The notes beneath the pieces were generated by a model that was given only the letters and a program-made list of their open reading frames with translations, had not been told where the DNA came from and made no database searches. The translations under genes were made by a program, and so were the position numbers. DNA of 64,000 bases from Saccostrea echinata (taxonomy: Eukaryota), in assembly GCF_033153115.1 (NCBI RefSeq), contig NW_026889774.1, positions 21,266,001 through 21,330,000 on the forward strand, written 5' to 3'. Positions 1,038 to 53,100 of this stretch are shown here, one piece after another (the first letter of the stretch is position 1; each line of letters starts with the position of its first letter).

Positions 1038-3167
1038 CTTTTTTAATCTGGTCTTCTTCAATGCCAACATCAATCACTTTTTGCTTTTCCCCAATTAACG
1101 ATTTTATTTCCTGTGATAGCGGTTGTAACGTTTCTGTGTTTTTTACATAAAGTAACCCTAAAAATGTCAAAATTAAAATTCAAAATCTTTATTTAAACAT
1201 ATCAGATATTGAAAACTGATATCAATAGTGTTAAGGTAGTCCGATTCTCAGGATCTGAAAATCAGCTTTCAAGTAATTGAAAATGCTCACAAAAATTCCT
1301 CTGATTTCACAGAGTAACGTGAATTTACCCATGGTATTTCTTCAAAGTTCATCATTAAAGTTAATCATATTATATGGGGGAAATTATCAAATCTTAAATA
1401 TATTTTCAGGAAATGCGAATAAAAACACCAGCTATGCATTTTCTATTTGAAAATTGATCAACAAATATATTTTAGAATAAAAAAATATAGGTATCCAGGC
1501 ATTTGGAGAAAATTGCATCTTTTTTATGCTTATACAATATTTTAGTTCTTCTATTTACTTCAGTCGTTATATAATTCATAGTATACAATGCTTGTGTTTT
1601 CATTGCTAGACATCACAGATAACGTCTAATTTCATATCATGCTAATAAGCATTGGTATCGAAAGCTAAATTAAAGGAAATTCGATTTCTCTAAAAATGAT
1701 TTTTTTTTTCTTTTATGGGGTACAAATGTCAACTTCTTTAAAAGACCTTTTGTAAGACTTGTAGAGAAGCTTGAATCATATTGAGATGCATAAATTGAAA
1801 ATTGTTGCACGAAAAGATCTCAGTTTTAAGCTTCATTTTGAGACTTTTTAAATAAAATAATAAATTTAAGAGTTCTCCTTCCTGGCTGAGGATCGGACAT
1901 CCTTAAACCACAAAGCACCTGACGAATGGATGGTGTACATTGTAACTCCCCTTCCCCCAACCTTCCGCAAAAATAAAAAAATAATTATTAGACGCGATTA
2001 CTTAACAAAAATACATGAATTCCTAGCCTGTCATGCTTATATTCCGATATCTGATGTCATTTTCCATTTTTGTTCAGTTTTAGAGATTGACCCTTTACGG
2101 TATACATGTTCAAAAATACTACATACCGTAAAGGGCCAATCTCTAAAACTTCACAAAAATGGAAATATTGGGATATAGGTATGATAGGCTTAGAATTCAT
2201 GTATTTTTTATAAATATCCGTTCTAATAAATTTTTTAGAGGGTTGGTAGGGGATTTCAACGTCCATTCTTCAGGTGCCTGTGTCTTAAAGTACCGAAGTT
2301 CACAATACATGAAACGACTGTGAACGTTAACAAGGGGCCCAGGGGCCTTGACGGACACCTGAGTATCATGGGTTTCTGAGTCAACCCCACCGGAAACTAG
2401 AACTCTTAACTCATGTACATAAATTTTATAAATTAATGAAGACTGTATATTCACTATCCTATTCGTGGAGTTGGTTCCTATATTATTAGGAATAGAAAAT
2501 ATTGAAAAAAAAAATATTTTAAGATTTCAGTTTTTGTAGACAGCTACATTTTTCTCTTAAATGGTCTTTAAATGGCCTTAAATGGTTTGCCCTTAAATAT
2601 TTTATGATTAGAGAAAAAAGGGATTTTAAAAGAAGCTATGTAATGATACCTTTTTAAAAACATTTACATATATTACCAATAACGGAGCCTGAATCATGCA
2701 GGCTAGGGGCTTCAATATTGAGGGCTACGTGTTTATTATAATGATGCCAACAGTTCGATTGATTGATATCAGAAGTAAAAAAAAAAAAGAAAAGAAAAGA
2801 TTTTTGTTGATTGCATTAGTTTTGATGATTTTTACCGTATTCTTCAAACCGTAGGGTAAAACGAAATTCACCATTTTTGTTACCCTTTACTCATAAAGGG
2901 TTTAAATCAGAAGTATTGTTTAGTCATTGCAGTGAAGAAAGTGAAAATACATACGACTGCTACACGACCACGACGGCAAACAAAACAGACTGCAATCCAT
3001 TCAAGTTTTCTGGAAATAGGGGCTTAGTAATACTTAGTGATACATTTAACAAACGTATGTTTTAAAGTATCGGAAAATAAACGGAAGTTCAAAACTATAA
3101 AGAACTTTTTAACATATCATAATTATAATTGTATTTTCCTTTACAACTTACCTACTTTCCTCGTCAT
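1038..3167 (-). CDS. 5' part (exons 1-2) of a tandem paralogue of the TIR-like/caspase gene; continues beyond the window start
   Basis: Exon 1 3167-3152 (ATG ACG AGG AAA GTA G|gtaagt); exon 2 1157-1038 (tag|GG TTA CTT...AAA AAA G|gtaatt). Gives MTRKVGLLYVKNTETLQPLSQEIKSLIGEKQKVIDVGIEEDQIKK, 33/45 identical to the N-terminus of the gene at 20404, with the same exon sizes (16 and 120 nt). Confidence 0.8.
1235..1902. mobile_element. Non-autonomous DNA transposon with TTAA target duplication (Kolobok/piggyBac-like MITE)
   Basis: ttaa|GGTAGTCCGATTCTCAG ... CTGAGGATCGGACATCC|ttaa: imperfect TIRs and TTAA on both sides. Confidence 0.7.
2005..2210. repeat. ~200-bp imperfect palindrome (hairpin MITE)
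   Basis: 'aaaatacatgaattc...tttagagattgaccctttacggtat' mirrored by 'ataccgtaaagggccaatctctaaa...gaattcatgtatttt'. Confidence 0.75.
2328..3040 (-). mobile_element. Degenerate Helentron/HINE-like element
   Basis: Terminal motif 'aacaaggggcccaggggccttgacggacacctgagt' is the reverse complement of the HINE 3' end seen at ~35580; (cgac)n-like tract near 2965. Confidence 0.5.
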
Positions 3168-4339: not shown

Positions 4340-4430
4340 TGGCCAGATAGTTCAGTTGGTAGAACACCTGACTAGAGATTGAGGGTGCCCGGGTTCGAAT
4401 CCTGGTCTGCTCCGCATTTTTCTCTCCTGA
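4340..4430 (+). mobile_element. tRNA-derived repeat head (SINE-like), not a functional tRNA
   Basis: A-box 'tagttcagttggtaga' and B-box 'ggttcgaatcc'; the tail 'cgcattttttctctc' is repeated at ~4187 and 'ccgttgcactttctcc' at ~4696. Confidence 0.5.
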
Positions 4431-8483: not shown

Positions 8484-11400
8484 TTACTGGTTCCTAATCC
8501 ATTTCAAAAAGTCCTTCAATTCTCCATCCGGGTCTCCCTCATAAAGTTCTTTGGCATTTTTTATCTCCTCTGGCCATATAATGACATCCCTACTGAGCTT
8601 GTGATACAGACAGGGTACTGACTTATGACCACTGCTCTCACTGGTGCCTGTATCTGTCTCATATTTATAAGCTATTCTCCCAGAGACCTTTGTTAGCTCC
8701 GCCAGTAGATCAATTTTTTCTGGTTTTGTCTCCAAAGTTTCTTTCAGCTGAGTCTCCAGGTTTGTAATCAGCCACCCTCCTTGTTTATCTCTATTGTAAG
8801 CCTCTTTTCCTGAAAATATAGAATCAATTATTATTTATTAAAAGATATTAAGCAATATCCACACGCTGAATGTTTATTACTTGTATAAACAAATACCTGG
8901 AGCAGAGGCAAACATGACTAAAGCATCATTGACACAAGGTGGCGGATCACTTATTATAGGCTCTGGGAAAAAGAAATCCAGAATCTCTTGTTCAAATCCT
9001 TTACATTCCTCCTTTATTTCATTTATCTGATCAATTGTGAGGCCTTCTGAAAGTAAAGTCTCAAATAATTTGATGGCTATCTCATTGTCTGTTCCCTGTG
9101 CTTCCAGCAGTGAAATGGTTCTATGTTCCATGAGATATTTGTTGTAATCCAAAATATGTCTGTGCAGCACTGCAAGCTTTGCTTTTTTATTCCACTGTAA
9201 AAGAAAGATTTTATCTTGTTTTGAATCCCCTCACAACCATGAACAAAACTCAAATTATGAAACTGAACATCCACAACATTAAACAATGCCAGAATATTAA
9301 ATCAGTAATTAATTATATAATCTTTTTCATTAATATGTATTTTAATTTTAATGTATTTCAAAATTTTACTAATTCTTGTAATGTAATTTCATGGGTGATT
9401 CTTGTTTACAGAAGATTCAATGAACCGATATGTGAACATTATGTGGAAGTTATCGTTCGTAGGGATGTAAATTCCAGGGTTAGGATGATCCACAAAATCC
9501 ACAAACATTGGTCCCCATGAACAATGTTGATTTCACTAAATTTTATACTTGCCTCCTGGATTTGCTTTAATCTGGCCTCTTTATCTTCTTCTGTCTGCTT
9601 CGTTGTACTTCGCTTGGCATCTGTTGTATCCTGATGTGAAGTATCGCTTGAGGCATCTACAGAATCAGGGCTCTTTAGACCAGCCCTAATATCATTTTCT
9701 GCTGTCAAAACATTAACCATCACTCCAGGATCAAAGTTCTCATGTCCATCTAAACCAAATCGACTCCTGCATGACTGAAAAAAAAAATATTTATTGGACT
9801 TTTAACAACTGTTCAAGAAATATATATTTTCTTCACAAAGTTGTTAAATACATGAGAGAATGATAATAATTCTTGCTCAGAAAAATGAGAATTTTATATA
9901 TGCTTCTCTAAAACATAGGTAGTCAGAGATTATGTAGCTCATCTCAATGGATATTATCCTTAAGTAAGGCACAGTCCAGACCTAACAAATAATCTAGTAT
10001 TATCCATCCCTAGATGCAACATTTATGCAAATTTTGTGCAGGAAGGGCTTGCAGTTACTTGGAAATGGACTTGCTCGAAAAACTTTAATATGGTCACTCA
10101 TCCAGAAAATACAGACCAGACCTAGCATCAAAATCAAGTTTGGAAGTCATATTCCTTGATGCATAATCCATACATGTTTGGTTCAGGAAGGCTTTATAAA
10201 TACTTGCAATTGGACCTGCTAAAAAATTAACCTGGTCACTCATCCAGAAAACGAATGTCAGATCCAGGATCCGAAACATGTCCAGTAGTGTACTAGATGC
10301 ATCATAAATCTAAGATTGGTCCAGGTAGGGCTTAAAATTACACTTGAATGAACGTGCTCCAAAATCATTAACCTGGTCACTCCTCCAGAAAATTCAAGCC
10401 AAACCCAGCTTCTGAAGCAAGTCTGGTAGTGTGCATTCTTGGATACATCATCCATGCAAGTTTGGTCCAGATAGGGCTTGAAGTAACACTGAAATCAACC
10501 TGCTCAAAAAACTAAAACCTGGTCACTCATCTGGAAATACAGGTCAAATCCAGCATATGAAGCAAGTCTGGTAGTGTGTATTAAAAGATGTATAATCTAT
10601 GCAGTTTTGGTCACACGAGGCTTACAGTTTATCTAAAATGTTATTTTAAAGCTTACATTATTTTAAAATGAACCATCCAAAAAATGTAGGTCAGATACAG
10701 CTTCTGAAGCAATTCTGATAGTGTGCATCCTTAGATGTATCATCAAATGCAAGTTTGGTCAATGTAGGGGTTATAGTTATTTGAAAATGAGAATGGCTTC
10801 AAAGACTTTAACCTGATTAATAAGACCTGCTCACTCAGAAAATGAAGGTCAGATCCAGCATCTTAATTAAGTTTTGTAGTGTGCATTCTCAGATGTATCA
10901 TCCATGCAAGTTTGGAAATGAGACCTGCTCTAAAAACTTTTGCCTGGTCCAAAAACATAAACCTGCTCAAAAAACATTAAGCTGGTTATTCTTTGGCCGA
11001 AAATTCACCTTCTGAAAACTGACTGGTACAATGAAACATACTAGAAGCATCATCTATGCATCTCTTATCAATATAGGGTGTGAAAGTACTTGCTCCAAAT
11101 ACTTTAACTTGGGATGCCGGCGCTGAAGACATTTAGGGTATTATATAATCTCCCCCAACTTCACTGAGGTAAGTGAAAAACAAAAATCATTCAAAACACA
11201 ATTTATCCTTAAATTTACACAGATTTAAGATTTAAGTATTTAACACTAGACAGAATGCAAGTTTTGGCTTGAAGAAGTGCATGGGAATATATCTTGAATG
11301 AGGGTTATTAAATACATGTGCAGTAAAAACTGTCTTATCCGACACCTGTGAAATTCATTTCACTGTAAATTACGACCTTTATTTTAATTCCATTTTAATA

Positions 11401-14400
11401 ATGGTCTTTACACTGGGTAATCCAACACCCTGCTAATCCCAACACAAAATGTGTCTCCCAGTGCATGTCAGATTAGACAGGTTTCACAGTATACATAATG
11501 GCAAAGCAACAGGATTAAATAAATAAAAATATTACCTGAATAAAAAAAAGACAGGGTTTGCCTTCAAGAGCCGAACAATTGTGTTGGTCAAACATTCTGA
11601 TAATGTCTCTTGTTAAAAGAGACTTTCCATTATGGAAGAACAACTGATGTACCATTTCAGTCCTAGGTTTCTTTTGAACTGTGATCCCAGATGGGTGCTG
11701 CTCATGGGGCTCTTTGTTATCCTCTTTAATAACCATGGGTACTTCCTGTCCGTGTGTACTGATGATTAGTACAAAGAAGCTGGGCTTCAGTTTCTTACAC
11801 CAATTTATTCCTATGTCATGTCAAAAAAAAAAATGAAATATTCACATGTATAATTATGTAAATCATAGTATAATGAAAAAGACTGGAGTAAAGTATCAAT
11901 AAATCTGACTAGTTATAAACTAGATTATAAATAGAAAAAGTAGCAATTACCTTCTTGTAAAAATTGTATTGCTTGTTCAGCAGTTGGATTAAGTTTCTTT
12001 TTCACAAAACATCCCAAGTTTTCAAAACTATCCTTCATCTTCTGAAATTCCTTTGAAGAAGAATGCCTGTTCTCTAAAGACACCTCAGCTTTTTCAGAAT
12101 CGGCATCAAATTCCAATAAACCAATGTAGAGACACAGGCCAGGATTTTTAAGGGGATAACTGTTATCCTCCTCCACTTTGTCATCAGTGTTTGTTCCGGC
12201 GACAAAGCTATGCAATACAAAATGAAAAATTATGCAAGGCCATCTTTAAAAAATTGTTTGTTTGCCCTCTCCTGACCGACTGGCTAAAAATAGTCTGACT
12301 CATTATCTGACTGATTTATCTCCAGGAAATTATATTTTTTTCCTTTTCATTTCGAATTTTTCTCATCCCTTCATATTTTGAAAATTCAGCATTGATGTTG
12401 AAACTTTCTAGGAAATTTTTTTTTCCAACCTACCTACTGACCCAATTTTTTTTTTAACCCTGAATCGGTAGAGGGCAAACAAAAATTATTTTAAAATGGC
12501 CCAGAGTATGATTCTATGCAGCATTGAAGCAGTGGCAGAACCTTCCATGTCTGAATCTATACAGACTTTTTAAACAAGAATAGGAAGAGCTAAAAGATCT
12601 AACAAAGAGGTAAAAACACTGTAATTATCTATAATTTATCCTTCACATTTCTTGAAAATATCTTGGACCAACAATCTTTTAAGGTATAAATTTAATGGCC
12701 AGATCCTGAGATATTCTACATCTAATTAGAAGTTCTATATAAATTGAAAAAGGAACTCATACTTAATGCCAGATTCCTTTGAGATTTCATCTTCATCATT
12801 TGGTTTTGTAGAAAGGTCTGGAGCTTTCCCTTGATTGAAATTTTCCAAAACCTCAACTTTTAGAAACTGTGGTTCTTTGTTCTCTGTTGGAGTCTGAACA
12901 GGGGTAACAGTATCTACTTGGTCTTTTGAGCTACTGGAACAATTTTGATTGTTGAATTTGTCCACAATTTGTTTGGCTAGGGTTTCGATGCTTTCTTGAT
13001 TGTTGTTTTCCATTGTAACAACCATGTGACATGTTTTTGATCCATGTTCAAGGTATTTTTCATCTTCACTTATCACAGTGGCTTTTGAGGTGAAAGAAGG
13101 AAAAGAAGTCAGAAGGTGCTGGTTTATGTTACAAACCACAACCAAAGTGAACTCAATTCCATCATCTTCTTCATCATCATCCAACAGCTCTGAATATGAA
13201 AACAAAATTAGATATGTCATATATGAAAAACATCCTTTAAGGAGGCTGGGGGGTCAACAAATTAACCACAAATTAACCACCAGATTTAACTTAATTTTTT
13301 AGATATGATATCTTAAGCTGTCAACTATCATTTGGCAAAGAAAATTTTCAAAAATTTTAGTTTTAAAAATTGATCATTTTCTATATCTTCATATGGAGCT
13401 CTTCCTCTAAAGGAGATCAATATAGTCTAAAAATGGCCACAACCCCCCAGTCTCTTTAAAAGACAACTTAGGAAAGAATAATCTTAAAAACACCCCTGAA
13501 AAGACAATTTAAGAAAGAATGATCTTAAAAACACTTAAAAATAAGTCTGCCATTTTGAAACAAGAGGCTCAAGGGCCTTTACAGTCACCTGCATATAATA
13601 CAACAATTTAGAGGATCCATAGAAGTATGAAATAAATTGATAGATGAAACTTTATTATCCAAAAGCAAGAAAAATAGGATGATCCACAAAATAATTAGTC
13701 TAGTAACAGTAACAGCTCATAAAGTATAAGTTCCTCTTGCCCCCATTTATCACTATCACCATGTAAACTATAACCTCTCACATCATATTTATATGCAGTT
13801 AGTTGGAGATTTTCAAAGAATAAAAAAATTAACACATTTTCACTATATTACAGGTATCAATAGATCCCACCCTTACACCAGAACATCTGATTCAGGGGCA
13901 ATGAAACTCACATTTCTTTTAAAGAATTATTAGAAAGTTTTAATTTAAATTCATTGTGTGAACCACTGTGGTATAATAATAAAATAAAGATTCAAAATAA
14001 ATATGTATTTTGTAAGCAAATGTTTGATAAAGGGTTCCACATAGTACATGACTTATTCAATATAGAAGGTAATTTTATTAGCTATGAAAGTATCACAAAA
14101 TATTATTTAGTAAAATTACCATTTACCACACATGAGGGTCTGAAGCAAAGTATTTTGAGTGCATGGCCAAATATCAAGCAATTGTCATATAATACTACTG
14201 TCAAACCATATCAACCTGAATTTATAAAAATACTTTGTAAGAACAAAAAAGGATCCAGAAATATTTATGATTATTTAATGTCAAAAATACAGCACAAACC
14301 AATTTGTGAAAACAAATGGGCTACTGATCTAAAGTTAAGAGTCAAATTTCAACTGGAAACATGTTTATGCAAACTTTAAATTGATAACGAAAGACTCGGG

Positions 14401-17400
14401 ACTTATGTGGTTTAATTATAGAATTATTCATAGAATATTAGGTACTAATAAGTACTTATATTTGTCTAAAATTAAAAATTGAACACTTTGTTCAATATGT
14501 AAATTAGAACCAGAATCAATTAAGCATATATTTTTCTACTGTCCACAGGTTTCTATGATTTAATGGCTAGAATTGTCAGATTGGATTTTTCAAAAGTCTG
14601 GTAAAAGAATTGAATTTGATGTGAAAACTGTTATTTTTGGTTATCTGGAAAAAGATCACATGGTAATAAATTTGATAATCCTGTTGGTGAAGAAATACTT
14701 ATTTCAACAATCAAGAAAAAACAATAATATTGTCTTTAATGAAATTTCAAAATATTTAAACAATTACTATACTTTAGAGGAAAAAATGTCAGAAAATACA
14801 TTTTATAAAAATAGATGGTCCAAGTGGAAATGTCTTTTTAATGTGTCTAATAGTAACTCTTAATATTATGAATGAATATGTATTGTAAATCAGGTATTTA
14901 TGTTTATTTGCATGTGTATGTATATATATACATATATATGTATGTGTATGTATCTGTCCAACAGGTATGAGAGTGGGAGAGAGAGGTGTATATGTTTTGC
15001 AATTACATAAATAAAAAAAACCCTCGCATTTCTGGAAGAAACCCCTTGCTCATCATAACTATACACTTAGTTTATTTGTTTTATAACCAGGAGCTTAAAA
15101 GAATATTTTCAAAGAAATTATGCATTTTCACTATATAATCAAAAGAGCCCCCCCCTTTCACCAGAACCCCCGACCATGTGCAGGAATTTCACAATTTTTG
15201 AAGAGGCATCCTTGTTATCATAACCATGCCTTTAGTTTGTTTACATAATACATAGGAGCAGAGAAGAAGATTTTCAAAGAATTAATGCATTTTCACTATA
15301 TTTTCAATAGAGCACCCTTCCAACAACAGGACCCCTGACCCAGGGGCCATGAAATTCACAATTTTGGAAGAGGCATCCTTACTCATCATAACTATATACT
15401 TGGTTTGTTTGTTTGATAGATAGGAGCAGAGAAGATTTTCAAAGAATTAATGCACTTTCATTATATAATCAATAGGTCACCCACATGGCGCAGTGGTTAG
15501 AGCATCTGCTCATGAGTCGCAGAGTAAGGAGCTTATCCTTACGTCGTGGGTTCAAATCCACTGCAGGAAGTGGAGATCGGTCCTTGGGATGAGACCATAT
15601 AAACCCAGGTGCCAACTTGCAGAAGGTGTTGGCACAAAAAAGATCCCTCAATGCTCAATGGCCCTGAGTGCCAAGTATTGGTATAAATTTGCAGCCCTCC
15701 ACTGGCAAGTGGTGGAGTCTCCATATAAGTGAAAAATTCTTGGGTGAGACATTAAAACAAACAAACAAAATATAATCAATAGAGCCAGCCACCCCCCCCC
15801 CCCTTCGCAGAACCCCCTCATCCTGGGGCCAGAAATTTCAAAATTTTAGAAGAGGCACCCTTGCTCATCATAACTATGTACTTAGTTAGTTTGTTTAATA
15901 CACAGGAGCAGAGAAGAAGATTTTCAAAGAAATAAAGCATTTTCACTATATAATCTACATAGCCCCACCCTAGAACCAGAACCCCTGACCCTGGGGCCAT
16001 GAATTTCACAATTTTGGTAGAGGATTCAGTGCTTATTACAATCATGAATGCCAACAGTTTGACTGCTTGTTGTCGGGGAGTAAAGAAGATTTTTAAGGAT
16101 TGCATTAATTTTGGTGGTTTTAGCCCCACCCCTCAGGCACCAGGGGGGCAGAGACCATGAAATTCAGAATTTTTGTCCTCCTTCACTCATACATGCTATA
16201 TGCCAAAAATGTTGAAATACTTTGTATCGCAATTACCTCACAGTTATTCAGGGGCATGAATTACTTGCGTTAGTGACAATCAAATGATTTGAACAATTAG
16301 TATGCCGAAAGTACTATGTATTGCAAAGGGATGAACTTCTAATAGTAGGTTGTCTAATTTGGAATGTTTAAATTTTTTTTTATCAGCTTCCAAAAGTAGC
16401 GATAATCAGAAAGAAATGGTTGAATTTAATTAGAAGAGTTGGCTTACTGAAAAAGTATCAAAAAAAATTAACACATGAGGACTAGGTTCTCTTAAAATTT
16501 ATAAGTGTGGTACAGGGAATGTTCTGCAAGATTCTTTCATATCTGTCCTTTAAAAATCCACAATGCTTATCTCGCATAGCCTGGTTCTCTGTCCCTGTTA
16601 TGCCTCGTATACTCCGCGATACTGCCTTGGCAAGGATGAGCCAGGGAACCAGGCTAGATATCACGTTGTATGGAACAGCACATTGCCCCCAGTTAACAGA
16701 CATTTCCTACCTTCACCGAGAAAGAGTTCCATTAAATAAAGTAATCGCAATATCAAGTATTGGTTCAGCAGTTCCAGAGAAGAAGCTGAAAATGTTCAAA
16801 TGGTAACACACTACGCAAGATGCACAACCCACGACAACGGACAAAAAGGGATAGCAATAGGTCACCTGAGTGACTTAAGTGACCTAAAAAAGCTATGCAA
16901 CTGTGTCTTGCATCTTGCTGAAATGTAATCATTTCAAGGTTATAACAATTCTGGTCTTGAGCATCCTTTGTGTTGAATATAAACTATGACCTTTCACAAT
17001 CCTAGCATTTATATACCATACAGTGGGTTTCTTTAGTGGGTGTAAAATTTGGCATTTTGCTTGCTCAAAGGTATGCCAATAATTTTGGAGAAACTTTTTT
17101 GGCAGACACTCAGTTACATAAGGTTGTAAAAGAAAGGAAGTTCACCTTCTAGATGAGTTTAAGTATGTTGAATTTACGTTTGAATACTGATTTAGACGAG
17201 AGTTTGAGTTAAAATCAACATCAGATGAAAGTGTATTGTTTAACAGCAGACTGATCGAAGTTAATTATGTTCTCCTATTCAGTACTTATACACAACGGTG
17301 CAAATTTAGTGATAATTTTTGCGGGCTACTTAAAACCACTAAAATAAGTTAGCACACTGCTAAATATATGGTATCATTGTCCCAAGAACGTCTCAGCCAT

Positions 17401-20400
17401 GTGACCTTGAGTTTATGCAAACAGCCATGAATCATGACAGACCTCTTGGTCATAACCAATCTTCATGTCGACTATGAGTCTATGACCAAATATGCTCTCC
17501 TTGCATTTCCAAGTCCTTCAAATTTTGTCACTTCTGAACCTGTGACCTTGACCTAGTCTTAATGACCTTTATTTAAGGTTGTGACGCATCCTATGTTCAT
17601 AATGAACCCTCAGGCCAAGTATGATCCTCTTTATATTATTCCCTTACAAATTATGAAACAAAGAATTTTATACTTCAAACTCAGTGACCTTGTCCTTGTC
17701 CAACTGACCATAGTGTAGGGTTGTTACACTCTCTGGTCACCAACATTATTTGTACTTTGAAACTTATGGTGAAGATACATTTAAACAACCTGTGACTTGA
17801 CCTTGTCCAAATTAATCTGGGTTAAGGTCATGACATACCCTCCAGTCACAACATTTGTCTTGAGTATATACGTGTATAAGCTTCTAACATTTATAACACC
17901 CTCACAGTAGCTCAGTTGGTAGAGCACTTGCTCCATAATCGAAAGGTTGTGTGTTCGAATCACAGCCGAGACTGACCTAAGTCGATAAAAAATAGGTAGC
18001 AACTGTTCCTTCACCAATTGCACATTGGAGCTAAAGTTGTGGGTCTTTCGGATGAGACCTTAAAAACCAAGGCTACGTGTCACGGTAGGCATTGGCACGA
18101 TAAAGAACCCTCACTGCTCAATGGCCCTTAGTGCCAAGTAAAGGTCTAAATTTGAAGCCCTTCATCGGTATATGGTGACGTCTCTATATGAGGGAAAAAT
18201 TCTCGAACGGGACATAAAACAAAACACAATCAATCAATCAAATCTAACATTTATACATTTCAAGTTGTGACTAGAACAATAATTTATGCACAAAATATTT
18301 TTAAAAATGTAAACCCTAAAAACAGCATCACCTCTAGTATGCACAACTCATTGCAGCTGCATCAATTGTAAGTTGTAAAACATACCATATTCTCCCAATT
18401 TAATGCTTGATTGAATGAAATCTAACCATGTTCCATGTGACTCATGTATACATCAGAAATATTGTAAGATATTTTACCTTCCAGTTTGTTGTGGATTTTA
18501 TTTGATTGCTCTTTCCAAAATGTCTCCCAGAAAACATTGTCTGTGATTACAATCAGTGAGGTTACTGACTTCAGATTTTTACCAATGTGCTTTGCAATTG
18601 AAGTGAGATTTCCTGAAAAATTATATTGTAATTTAAAAATAATTTTCAAATGACAATGCTATATACAGTATCATGTACATGTATTGGTGTTGTATAGAAG
18701 GAATTCCCCCATAGTCATGCAGCTTTCCCCTCCCCCCTCCCCAGTATATCTGTACTCTAAAACAGGATTCTCCCCCAGCAGAAATTTCACACTAGAGCCA
18801 CACTTCCCTTTCCTTTTTTCCCCCCCCCCCCCAAGAGTACGATTTCCCCCAACCTTATAAACACTAAATTTTAGCTCTCAGGGCCATTATAATCCACAGC
18901 AACAATACTTCGGCTAAAGTTTATATGAAAGTCAACTAGTTATTTTAATGGAAAATTGAGTGTTTTCGACTCATAAATTGTTCATCTTAAATATAAATTC
19001 TAAAAATATCTTTCAAAATATCTTTCAAATTAAATCATAGAGTTTAAACTCAAAATTGACTCTCAAAAGAAATTGCAATCAGTGATAAAATTCAATGTCT
19101 CAAGTCAACACCTCTCGTGGCGCTGCACAGTGGTGCCTGTATATGTCATAAATTTTTCAATAGATATTAGGCCACCTTTAAAAATTTAATTTGTTTTCCC
19201 TCTACAATATCAACCCAGTAGAGGAGTCTTAGACATTGTTATTCCATAGACTAGTTTTAATTCTCATATAAACAGAAACTGTGCTTTTGGATATTAAATG
19301 AATAATACTTTAATGGTGAGGAAATTGGCACTGGGGAAATTACACTCTCACTGACTCCATATAATTAATAACTGTCAGAGTAGCCCCTCCCCAAGGGAAA
19401 ATAGAATCCAGTGTAGGATTTGATGCAAATGTATATATCAAAGACATGCCACTGAATAAAATCCAAACTAAGAATGTAGGGGAGAAGCCATGTGCAATAT
19501 TGTTGGTTAATTGGAGGATAGCCACTCTTCCCTTGAGGCTTCACTGGGGAAAACTCACTATAGCCAGCTTTCCAAGGGAGAAGTCTCACTATACACAGGC
19601 CTCTGAATTTCTATCAATAAGCCCTTACATGATTGATTAGAGTAATATATATATACCCCTCTATATTTATATATAGAGGGGGTATATATATATTACTCTA
19701 ATCAATCATGTAACGGCTTATTGATAGAAATTCAGAGGCCTGTGCACTATATGAGGCTGGTACACAGGTACATGTCTTACATAGAATTTAAAAAAAAGGG
19801 TATAGTATCTAAATCTGATGTGATTTTACAGTGAAAATATAGGCCCAATGAAAAGTATTATCCTCTCTGTAAAGCAATAATTCAAGAATTCTACCTTCTT
19901 GACCATGTTTTCACCTCAATGATCCCAGTCCTATTAAGTTTAAACTGCACAGCAACATTATTACCTGGTTTTATTTTGTCCTCTTCAATGCCCGCATCAA
20001 CCACTCTTTTCTTTTCCTCAATCATAGATTTTATCTCATTTGATAGCGGTTGAAACGTTTTTGTGTTCTTTACATATAGTAACCCTGTTAAATGTCAAAT
20101 AAAAAAAATGAGAGATTTATTTTGTCTTCATTTTTTTCTTCCTCTAAAACCTAAACATAACAACTCATAACAGATATAAAAGTTAACTCATCTGAACAGA
20201 ATTAAATCACTACCAACATTTAAAATGGCTGTATAACAATAGGTGTTTCGTCGATCCCAACTTTCGCAGTATCATTTACAAACGTAATTTGTTGTACACT
20301 TTAAAACAATGGTTAAATGTCGGAAGTTCAAAGTTATAAAGAACTCAGAAAGATATAATAATTATATTTGTTTCTTTTTTTAACTTACCTACTTTCCCTG

Positions 20401-20404
20401 TCAT
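8484..20404 (-). CDS. Caspase-family cysteine protease (peptidase C14), 691 aa, 9 exons, with a non-CARD/DED (TIR-like) N-terminal domain
   Basis: Exons 20404-20389, 20084-19965, 18612-18478, 13189-12763, 12207-11951, 11810-11536, 9774-9553, 9194-8897 and 8809-8484 total 2076 nt with all phases compatible (one GC-AG intron). p20 motifs: YPLKNPGLCLYI, LENRHSS, FFVLIISTHG (catalytic His), NCSALEGKPCLFFIQ|SCRS (catalytic Cys). p10 motifs: DALVMFASAPG, GGWLI, DLLAELTKV, KSVPCLYHKL. Confidence 0.9.
9990..11175 (-). repeat. ~140-145-bp tandem repeat array (HINE-type internal satellite) in caspase intron 6
   Basis: Unit 'acctggtcactcatccagaaaat...tctggtagtgtgcat...catccatgcaagtttggtc' recurs at ~10092, 10232, 10374, 10520 and more degenerately beyond. 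Confidence 0.7.
11321..11490. mobile_element. Tc1/mariner-type MITE
   Basis: 'cagtaaaaactgtcttatccgacac' ... 'atgtcagattagacaggtttcacagt' inverted termini. Confidence 0.5.
12237..12502. mobile_element. MITE with ~40-bp TIRs (second copy at 51870-52092)
   Basis: 'ggccatctttaaaaaattgtttgtttgccctctcctgaccga' ... 'tcggtagagggcaaacaaaaattattttaaaatggcc'. Confidence 0.7.
13241..13455. mobile_element. TTAA-flanked MITE (near-identical inverted copy at 47598-47801)
   Basis: ttaa|GGAGGCTGGGGGGT ... ACCCCCCAGTCTCT|ttaa. Confidence 0.8.
13918..15020 (+). mobile_element. 5'-truncated, decayed non-LTR retrotransposon (L1/Tx1-type ORF2 C-terminus)
   Basis: ORF remnants EPLWYNNKIKI, WFNYRIIHRILGTN and the C-x2-C...ESIKHIFFYC zinc-knuckle region, with stops and frameshifts. 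Followed by a (TA/TG)n tract and an AATAAA-polyA tail; flanks ctcacatttct/ctcgcatttct resemble a TSD. Confidence 0.8.
15476..15769 (+). mobile_element. tRNA-derived SINE
   Basis: A-box 'tggcgcagtggttagagc', B-box 'ggttcaaatcc', (aaac)n tail and 13-bp TSD atataatcaatag; core shared with the SINE at 17896. Confidence 0.85.
17896..18242 (+). mobile_element. tRNA-derived SINE
   Basis: A-box 'tagctcagttggtagagc', B-box 'gttcgaatc', (caat)n tail and 13-bp TSD tctaacatttata. Confidence 0.85.
19594..19744. mobile_element. 151-bp near-perfect palindromic MITE with a 7-bp TSD
   Basis: cactata|CACAGGCCTCTGAATTTCTATCAATAAGCC...GGCTTATTGATAGAAATTCAGAGGCCTGTG|cactata. Confidence 0.85.
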
Positions 20405-20439: not shown

Positions 20440-20448
20440 ATTGGCCGA

Positions 20449-50138: not shown

Positions 50139-53100
50139 ATGTCTCTACGTATATTCCTAGGAATTTTAGTATTTATTCCATTTTCTCAAGGTAACTACCT
50201 TAAGTAATATATGACCTTTATCTTTGCATATATTTTGTAAAATTTACTTGGAATACAAATCTATATTTTCTTCTTAGCCAAACTATTGTGATCCTGTAAA
50301 AATGCAATATTTAATTATCTCTTTACACCTATAAAATGTTTTTGAACTTTTAGAAAATTATATTGTATAAAGATGAAAATATTCAGCTCATGTAATATGG
50401 AGATAACTAACAGTAATCAACCTCAAAAGTCCATTGAATCAAAACAAATCAGGAGCAGAGCAAACACGGACCTCCAAAACACCAGTGGTGGGATCATGTG
50501 CCACGGAAGAATGAGCATCTCCTGTCGACCGATCACACCCTCCGTGTGCTCATTGTCATGATCGGGCAAACGGAAAAATCCGCAGACAATTCAGTGTTAA
50601 AATAATGCCTAATGAAAAAACGTCAGTCAGCACTCGGCTTAATGATAGATTGTATTTGCTGACAACAACGTCACTGTATCGACCATAGAACTTGCGAAAT
50701 GATGACTCTAGACGAGACTGTTGATATCCTTGTTTCATCAACTTGTTTGTCAATAACTTGCCTCGTTTTAGAAGTTGTTCGTACGTGGAGCATGCTCTTG
50801 CGTATCGAAGTAACTGGGAGATATACATGTATTTCATTTTAACATAGACTATCTGCCATTCTACCTCCAGAAAAACATGTTCAAAGATGAACATAAATCA
50901 CTTTAGATTTGCTTACTTATTTGGGGAGAAGGATGTCACTAAATAAACGCATAAGAAACAAACAACTTTATTAGTCCCCTACCGGTGAAACCGGAGGGGA
51001 CTATAGGTTTCCTCTGAGTCTGTCCGTCCGTCTGTCTGTCTGTCCGTCTGTCTGTCTGTCGGTCTGCCCCACTTGGTTTTCCGCATCTTTTTCCTAAACG
51101 CTTGCAGATATTGAGCTGATTTTTGGTATGTGAGTGTATCTTGATGAGTTACAGATCAAGTTTGCATTTCGTTCCGCTTCATTGATTTTTGACGGAATTA
51201 CGGCCTTTTCAATTTTTACGGGTTTTCCGCAATTTTCTTCTAAACGCTTGTAGATATTGAGCTGATTTTTGGAATGTGGCTTTACCTTGATTAGTTATAG
51301 ATCAAGTTTGCATTTCGTCCCGCTTCATTAATTTTTGACGGAATTATGGCATTTTCAATTCTTAACGGGAACCAGATTACACTTGCTGGTAGGGGACTTG
51401 TATTGCTAATGCAATACTCTCAGAATGCTTGTTCAGTGAGCAAGGCGTTATGAATAGCATTTGCTCTGCTGACATATTTTCCACGATGAGCTATCGCGTA
51501 TGATGGAAAATATGCCAACAGAGCGTTTGCTATTCATAAAGCCATGATCACAGAATATCGTTATTAATTATATTAGCATTTTATGGTTTGATAAGAATGA
51601 AAGTGGAAAGGCTGACTGTGCTTTGTTCACAGCTGCATGTTAGGCATAGGCTAAAACATGAATAAAAGTAATGCATGAAAATACTAGTAAATCAGAAGTG
51701 ACCATTACACTTTAATTCCATCTGCATCATATACAATAAACACGATACTTCTAAACACAAATCTCGTGATAAATGAGAAAGATAGAGATTGGCGCCCCCA
51801 AATATCTAAAATCAAACTATTGTATGACCATATGAAGAAGAACATTACAATCTAAAATTTTATCTTTTAGGCCATCTTTAAATTTTTTTGTTTGCCCTCT
51901 CCCGACCGCCTGACTAAAAACTTATTTAACCCCAGGAAACGATATTTTTTTTCTTTTTATTCCTGAATTCTCTCATCCTGTCAATAAGTATTTTGAACTT
52001 TTCTGGAAAAAATTTAACCATCTACCTACCGACCCAATGATTTTACCCTGAGTCGGAAGAGGGCAAACAAACATTAGTTTAAAGATGGTCTTAACACGAA
52101 TTAAGAGCATATTTAAATGTCAGATCTAGTCAATGTATGCCTTTTGATAATAAACTTTCATAAGATTTTCATTTTTATTATTTACCAACATGATTTTATA
52201 ATGCTTATCTCGAAAATTATTTTAAAAATCAGGACAATGGCAAACCGGTGGTGGAACTAACGGTAATCCAGGAGGTGGTGGAGGAGGCCAGGACGTCTTG
52301 AACGGCCAATCAGCACCGGCTCAGAGGCCAAGCTTAAGACAACAGCAGCAACAGCAACTACAACAACTTCCTGGGTTCCCCCAACAACTACAACAAACAG
52401 CTGGGTTCCCACAACAACTACAACAAACGCCTGGATTCCCACAACAACTACAACAAACGCCTGGGTTCACTCAACAACTACCTGGTCTCCCACAGAATTT
52501 TCAAACATTACCCCAACAAAACAACTTTTTAGGTGAGAGAGGACAAATGTTACTTCTGACCAACGGAGCTGCAAGTATTATGATAGCTAATAGGGATCGC
52601 CTCCCCCGGGAAAGAATCCGGAGGGTAGGGGTCCCAGTGTCTCTTATTCGTGCTTTTGCTATTCAGCCTGAAGTTTTGCTTCCACGCTCGCTTGCAGCTA
52701 ATGCACAACCTACTAATCAAACACCAACAACAGCACGAGGTATGTTTTTTTTTACTACAGCTTTATATTTAGCCATATAAATTTTATGCTATATAACATA
52801 TATGTATATCAATATCTTAACATTATCTTATATCAAGATTTAATTATTATAAAAGACGGAATGTGCATAGCTTGCCTTTCTGGGTTGCTTTAATGCTTTT
52901 GATATTGTAACGCTTCTACTATGCCCTTTGTGAATTTTGAATGGAAAACATTAGATGCCAGAGTATCCAAACTGTTCAAACATTCGACATTTTCTGTCAG
53001 TCCTGTGGGTAATGGGTGATATTAAATTTTTCACTATGCACAATATCAAATATTTAACCACCGGTATATTGCACACATATACACATATAAATATGAAATA

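Follow-up and report, generated by a model that had tools for sequence, protein, structure and literature searches.

A conserved alpha/beta prodomain, possibly a degenerate TIR domain, on a long-linker oyster caspase

Introduction

What does an oyster caspase carry at its N-terminus in place of a CARD or DED prodomain, and what might such a domain do there? The question is raised by a gene of the oyster Saccostrea echinata in a window of 64,000 nucleotides, by which we mean the whole stretch of DNA analysed (RefSeq assembly GCF_033153115.1, contig NW_026889774.1, positions 21,266,001 to 21,330,000 of the forward strand; coordinates below are those of the window). An earlier note, made from the letters alone, had proposed a caspase with a TIR- or SEFIR-like prodomain. 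We describe the gene as a long-linker caspase of the Cg3/7 type with a separate front domain of 172 residues. This is most likely a TIR domain that has degenerated and lost enzymatic function and that would serve the caspase as a recruitment prodomain, a reading to which we give a probability of about 50%.

Gene structure and transcript evidence

Nine exons on the minus strand, spliced from window 20404 to 8484, give a single open frame of 691 aa, with seven GT-AG introns and one GC-AG intron and all exon ends canonical apart from the GC donor. Exon 1 (20389..20404) supplies the start codon and aa 1–5, an N-terminus also seen in the relatives P0002, P0004 and P0006. Exon 2 (19965..20084, 120 nt, aa 6–45) encodes the predicted strand A (GLLYV), helix A, strand B and a BB-loop-like region, exon 3 (18478..18612, aa 46–90) the predicted helix B, strand C and helices with W74 and W78, and exon 4 (12763..13189, aa 91–232) an acidic loop, predicted strands D and E and helix E, followed by disordered linker. 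The front domain comprises the first 172 residues and ends near aa 172 (window 12945). The caspase itself begins in exon 5 (11951..12207, aa 233–318), which holds the start of p20 and the S1 residue Arg280; exon 6 (11536..11810, aa 319–410) carries the catalytic His338-Gly339 and Gln410, exon 7 (9553..9774, aa 411–484) the catalytic Cys412 in QSCRS, the start of a long inter-subunit linker with DSVD and DTTD, and the GC donor, exon 8 (8897..9194, aa 485–583) the helical part of the linker and the first p10 strand, and exon 9 (8484..8809, aa 584–691) the p10 subunit, with AYNR placing Asn589 in the Arg341 column, and the stop codon.

The NCBI model of this gene, XP_061184087.1 (LOC133192159), equals the spliced product from residue 26 onward; it omits exon 1 and the exon 1–2 sequence that opens the S. 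cucullata and Ostrea edulis relatives. The residues quoted in the earlier note are present. In S. cucullata, the model P0002 apparently continues through a site similar to the exon 7 GC donor (window 9553) and so gains 11 residues.

The splice joints were read from contigs that omit the introns exactly, taken from four sequencing runs (X1–X4) that are only presumed to be RNA, and those seen extend from joint 3/4 through 8/9, joints 1/2 and 2/3 not being among them. A 1159-nt contig of run X1 joins exons 3, 4, 5 and most of 6 at the predicted sites, hence the front domain is connected to the exon of the catalytic His, as the earlier note had supposed. Ahead of exon 3 this contig has 121 further, unlisted letters, the length of exon 2 (120 nt) plus one. 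Exons 4, 5 and 6 are also joined in runs X2 and X4, joint 6/7 occurs in three of the four runs, and joints 7/8 (with the GC donor) and 8/9 in all four. Furthermore, three Logan contigs of 2.2–2.5 kb each encode a complete relative of 652–682 aa including the front domain, which at such a length only spliced sequence would allow.

Tandem copies and conservation

Three copies of the gene stand in tandem; the one described above is copy A, and copies B and C also carry front-domain exons. Copy B starts at 3167, where its exon 1 (3152..3167, minus strand) has the ATG and a GTAAGT donor in the same arrangement as copy A; its exon 2 lies at 1038..1157 (minus strand) and the remainder left of the window. 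Copy C is found roughly 16–22 kb beyond the left edge of the window, reaching to about window -21900. The NCBI model of copy B (P0005, 540 aa) leaves out intact front-domain exons, and copy C has QACRS and lacks a DxxD motif behind the front domain.

Between the Saccostrea/Ostrea and Magallana branches, identity is 42% in the front domain, 28% in the linker that follows it, 56% in p20 and 73% in p10, and dN/dS of the front domain between copies is 0.32 and 0.21. The higher identity than in the linker, together with these ratios, identifies the front domain as a constrained domain under purifying selection and not filler. Its most conserved stretch is exon 3, and GLLYV is invariant (11/11).

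A family-profile search returned 15 proteins; all those with a named source belong to Saccostrea, Ostrea, Magallana or Crassostrea, and the divergent full-length C. virginica member P0042 also has the front domain (E 5e-30). Profile search of 1.84 billion representatives gave five matches, namely three named oyster proteins, the single-exon fragment P0016 and P0017; the last was considered as a distant homologue and rejected as a repeat artefact, so that, apart from these two, no homologue outside the oyster set was found among those representatives. A GTDB scan with the front domain confirmed none of 210 pattern matches, and a viral structure library gave no match to it under E 0.01. Atlas feature matches to phage hypothetical proteins reached 0.83–0.85, below lead level, and a second Atlas query returned none.

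Within the genome, no stand-alone front domain was detected: queries with exon 2, exon 3 and P0016 match only the three tandem copies, and exon 4 two of them, these copy counts being lower bounds. The nearest paralogous caspase loci, C10, C54 and C9 (98 kb), have no TIR, SEFIR or front-domain match at E < 0.1; they share the long linker, and C10 also has ACRSRF. Their lack of the domain in these 98 kb fits the idea that oysters, or an ancestor of theirs, acquired it by 5' domain shuffling; the tree at hand covers the family only.

Predicted fold and TIR kinship of the front domain

AlphaFold2 applied to P0002 predicts five strands (residues 4–11, 33–39, 62–70, 104–110 and 143–149; mean pLDDT 71.8). 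Both structure models of the front domain contain five strands, which points to a parallel alpha/beta, flavodoxin-like fold and, as far as the models go, rules out a six-helix death-fold bundle. A Pfam scan of the whole protein finds only Peptidase_C14, with no death-fold match (CARD, DED or DD). The alternation of strands and helices proposed in the earlier note, its assignment of the individual elements and its rejection of a death fold are all reproduced in this way.

TIR structures are among the top structural matches of the front-domain model. For comparison by sequence, we built profiles from oyster TIR (29 of 30 rows kept), oyster SEFIR (8/10) and two independent bacterial TIR_2 sets (21/30 and 22/27), the remaining rows having a cut locus or a stop, and from six non-TIR alpha/beta families (FMN reductase 18/25, receiver 21/25, B12-binding 19/25, NDT 9/13, DHQase 17/20 and flavodoxin 13/13 rows kept). 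In a block-shuffle test, the two bacterial TIR_2 sets were the only ones of the ten to stand out, at 4 and 7 of 100 shuffles, and at 3 and 4 of 83 with more rows; the six control families lay at chance (35–75 of 100). Three TIR profiles place the alignment alike, beginning at the BB loop, taking in helix B and strand C and ending at a Trp, in the register that the earlier note had chosen, and align W78 (kept 11/11) without gaps with the Trp of the TIR S-x-W motif, so that the strand C–helix C spacing ends in Trp; these alignments are not significant. The position four residues after this Trp holds Ser or Thr in all 11 rows, and the NADase Glu is absent there, as first noticed in copy A.

Other results lend a TIR assignment no support. 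None of 16 front-domain rows matches Pfam TIR, TIR_2, TIR_3 or SEFIR at E 10. True TIR and SEFIR profile sets recognise one another at probabilities of 78–99.7, whereas the front domain reaches about 1 at best against the reference profiles. The oyster TIR and SEFIR profiles score at chance and the global alignment mode gives TIR no advantage. The family's own caspase domain, aligned out of register, scores as well as bacterial TIR_2 (6/100 and 5/83), hence a shuffle result at this level proves little. In strand A, GLLYV shares only its Tyr with the FISY/MISY of oyster TIRs, and the F/M-I-S-Y motif is not found. EDKIKPG, previously read as a D-x-x-PG BB loop, proves specific to copy A (Asp 1/12, Pro 1/12, Gly 3/12). 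By the structure matches, TIR cannot be told apart from flavoproteins, LacI-type or SGNH domains, and flavoproteins and FMN reductases head the Foldseek, VIA and Atlas structure lists. Of the structure foreseen in the earlier note, the flavodoxin-like fold is supported by AlphaFold2 and by Foldseek matches that include TIR; a SEFIR-like reading, with its profiles at chance and no Pfam SEFIR match, is not supported.

For a possible resemblance to the BCAP-type TIR_3, Pfam gave no TIR_3 match to the front domain, and the genome had none to compare. Of nine oyster TIR/SEFIR loci, one has its BB loop interrupted by a phase-1 intron, as between exons 2 and 3 here, but displaced by about 4 codons if strand C is taken as the reference; we did not use it as evidence. 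From the fold, the register and the animal signalling context together, we consider descent from a TIR domain more probable than not, and we do not file the front domain as a TIR family member.

Catalytic domain, linkers and cleavage sites

The remainder of the protein matches Pfam Peptidase_C14 and has a p20/p10 caspase fold. The catalytic His/Cys dyad is intact, with His-Gly and Q-[AS]-C-R-S kept in 15 of 15 family rows; the pentapeptide is QSCRS in four of them, copies A and B included, and QACRS in 11, the classic QACxG not being found. The S1 pocket of caspases is formed by Arg179, Gln283 and Arg341 (caspase-1 numbering). The first Arg and the Gln are kept here, and the p10 Arg column (SWR in caspase-3) holds Asn, with an Arg one place later. 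This column varies among the long-linker loci, being Asn in AYNR (window 8484-8809), Gly in FGR of the C10 copies, and part of Ser/Trp-type motifs without Arg in C54 and C9. Judged by these residues, the S1 pocket may have been remodelled in the long-linker group, or some of its members may be inactive.

The inter-subunit linker measures 154 aa in copy A and 133–163 aa across the family, with DxxD in 15 of 15 rows. The linker (window 8897-9774, aa 414–570) is not disordered throughout, since it contains a predicted helical block (about aa 470–566 of P0002, pLDDT 55–80); the block is conserved across the family and possibly represents a regulatory domain that has no name as yet. The DQVD reported in the linker behind the front domain was found at aa 180–183 (12912..12923, minus strand) and is a likely cleavage site for release of the domain; of the 15 family rows, 11 have a DxxD motif just behind the front domain, ten of them identified by script and P0008 by eye.

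By its sequence the caspase is of a known type, the long-linker Cg3/7 type, here with QSCRS and Asn at the Arg341 column, which the earlier note had overlooked. A long-linker caspase-3/6/7 group with linkers of 63–286 aa and QACRx has been described in bivalves and gastropods, and QACRS is among its published variant pentapeptides (PMC11543851). The Pacific oyster ‘caspase 3/7’ AMZ04158, named Cg3/7 in supplement 1 of PMC7836458 and reported there at second hand to have DEVDase activity, falls in the 90% cluster of P0009, a full-length family member. Common to the family and to Cg3/7 with its long-linker group are QACRS, AYNR, tandem duplication and a linker which, at 133–163 aa in the family, is within the published 63–286 aa. 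The AMZ04158 clone, of 541 aa, opens with a Met located within the domain's last strand, so that about 140 front-domain residues are absent. Cg3/7 was thus classed as an executioner from a clone that begins inside the front domain, and its native regulation has for that reason probably never been assayed.

Proposed mechanism

We infer recruitment, partner and order of cutting as follows. The front domain would descend from a TIR domain and dock on TIR assemblies (TLR, MyD88-like or orphan TIR adaptors) or on itself. Clustering would bring the caspase domains together, the long linker would be cut at its DxxD sites, and cleavage at the DxxD behind the front domain would release an active DEVDase, an executioner-type enzyme that would have gained initiator-like wiring by domain shuffling. 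Bivalves have hundreds of TIR proteins, and the present genome has at least 150 TIR_2 and at least 10 SEFIR matches as possible partners, none of which is singled out.

Tentatively, and with clearly less confidence than in the recruitment prodomain itself, we suggest that oysters keep a conserved and transcribed line of caspases whose cryptic TIR domain, missed by all profile libraries and absent from the cloned enzyme, couples TIR immune assemblies, or a TIR-made nucleotide, directly to an executioner-type DEVDase without a death-fold adaptor, taking Toll-type sensing to cell death within one protein. No clear bivalve orthologues of caspase-1 or caspase-9 are reported in PMC7836458. Should the front domain prove to be a TIR scaffold, it would offer a concrete, testable link from bivalve immune receptors to a caspase; even if it is not, an unnamed and conserved alpha/beta caspase prodomain remains.

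Alternative explanations

The best-surviving alternative, which we nevertheless regard as unlikely, is a flavodoxin-like domain unrelated to TIR that acts as an autoinhibitory cap or as a small-molecule or redox sensor, with the cut at DQVD lifting the brake. It would account for the flavoproteins and FMN reductases at the head of the structure lists, for the want of significant TIR homology and for the reported activity of a Cg3/7 clone that has lost most of the domain. However, the profiles of flavodoxins and of the other five control families all score at chance, the Thr/Gly-rich phosphate loop that follows strand A in the control flavodoxins is absent, and no animal protein turned up that could have donated the domain.

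Enzyme pockets of TIR domains lie around strand C, the region which, with W74 and W78, is strongly conserved here. This conservation, the bacterial TIR_2 sets as the nearest sequence signal and the precedent of type IV Thoeris (10.1101/2024.10.24.620036) would suit a TIR-derived nucleotide receptor or atypical enzyme in which a small molecule switches the caspase on, as in bacterial TIR-to-caspase signalling. We judge this distinctly improbable, since Glu occurs at W+4 in none of 11 rows and the divergent C. virginica protein P0042 no longer has the Glu at W+2.

More doubtful again is a decayed duplicate of the caspase domain, a built-in pseudo-caspase comparable to c-FLIP in one chain, with the parallel alpha/beta core in common; at profile level the front domain matches the family's caspase domain no less strongly than TIR, and its last helix resembles, by eye, the caspase helix I-x-x-x-F-x-x-x-x-C. 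That the front exons are mispredicted or come from a different transcript, the real protein being a shorter form of 540–570 aa, agrees with the internal Met starts of P0003, P0005, P0035, P0044 and the Cg3/7 clone and with the joints 1/2 and 2/3 not displayed, but is already largely refuted by the X1 and Logan contigs, by purifying selection on the domain and by short starts that fall inside the predicted fold, and short isoforms may coexist with the long form.

Comparison with known systems

The recruitment prodomain that we favour would differ from the prodomains of the CARD/DED initiators caspase-8 and caspase-9, which are six-helix death folds, in being alpha/beta and in preceding an executioner-like Cg3/7 catalytic domain. 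Three TIR structures serve for comparison, those of SIGIRR (7fcl), the ‘Cryptic TIR’ 5for and RRS1/RPS4 (4c6t); the front domain is 8–10% identical to them with no profile match, has no conserved BB-loop Pro-Gly and has a long acidic loop before strand D. We take 5for to be BCAP, and the TIR domains of all three to be scaffolds.

Fusion of TIR and caspase, which the earlier note did not count among the standard animal architectures, is already listed for an animal, with two TIR-caspases in the earthworm Metaphire vulgaris (PMC11463336). These have the same proposed layout, a TIR-type domain ahead of a caspase in a lophotrochozoan. Detected by routine domain scans, they are species-specific and are flagged by their authors as possible gene-model chimeras, whereas the oyster front domain is invisible to Pfam, kept in four genera and transcript-supported; the two cases are set apart by description, and we assume independent origins. 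Other odd prodomains on invertebrate caspases include DSRM in oysters, TNFR and LRR in amphioxus (PMC2575513), and ankyrin, kinase and ROC domains besides the two TIR caspases in annelids and flatworms (PMC11463336). In bacterial type IV Thoeris, a TIR product activates a caspase-like protease (10.1101/2024.10.24.620036); there, TIR and caspase act in one pathway as separate proteins linked by a nucleotide signal, whereas the oyster protein is one chain without the NADase Glu. Highly diverged, uncharacterised TIR clades have also been reported in molluscs (10.64898/2026.04.30.722052).

The word TIR does not occur in the main texts of PMC7836458 and PMC11543851. A 680-aa entry with a 257-aa N-end in Supplementary Data 1 of PMC11543851 fits P0008/P0009 by its lengths, an identity suggested by these figures for an entry that carries no accession. 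The same file lists a Mercenaria long-linker caspase, XP_045211959.2, with a 284-aa N-end. We found no description of the oyster front domain in the open-access literature, subscription papers excluded, and what appears to be new here is an alpha/beta prodomain, conserved, supported by transcripts and invisible to profiles, in an oyster caspase that had been studied from a clone without it.

Other features of the window

A short tandem repeat with an inverted core (GCACGACGGTCGTGC) lies directly upstream of the start codon of copy A (20440-20565), and related copies follow 2.5 kb on, at 22940-23090. Head to head with the caspase are exons of a zinc-type alcohol dehydrogenase/quinone oxidoreductase on the plus strand (25122-27726; Pfam ADH_N and ADH_zinc_N), and another piece resembling a first exon, at 32.7 kb (32674-32913, plus strand), suggests that the gene has a second copy. 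Within intron 3 of the caspase gene, broken frames on the plus strand (13891-14863) resemble the 3' end of a LINE-type retroelement; they have no Pfam match. ARAGORN called two tRNA-Ser genes (4341-4413 and 15479-15569, plus strand), with a similar stretch at about 17900-18200; these fall within high-depth repeats and are more likely tRNA-derived SINEs. Finally, a 184-aa Gln/Pro-rich open frame with short repeats and no Pfam match (52226-52780, plus strand) is probably an exon of another gene.

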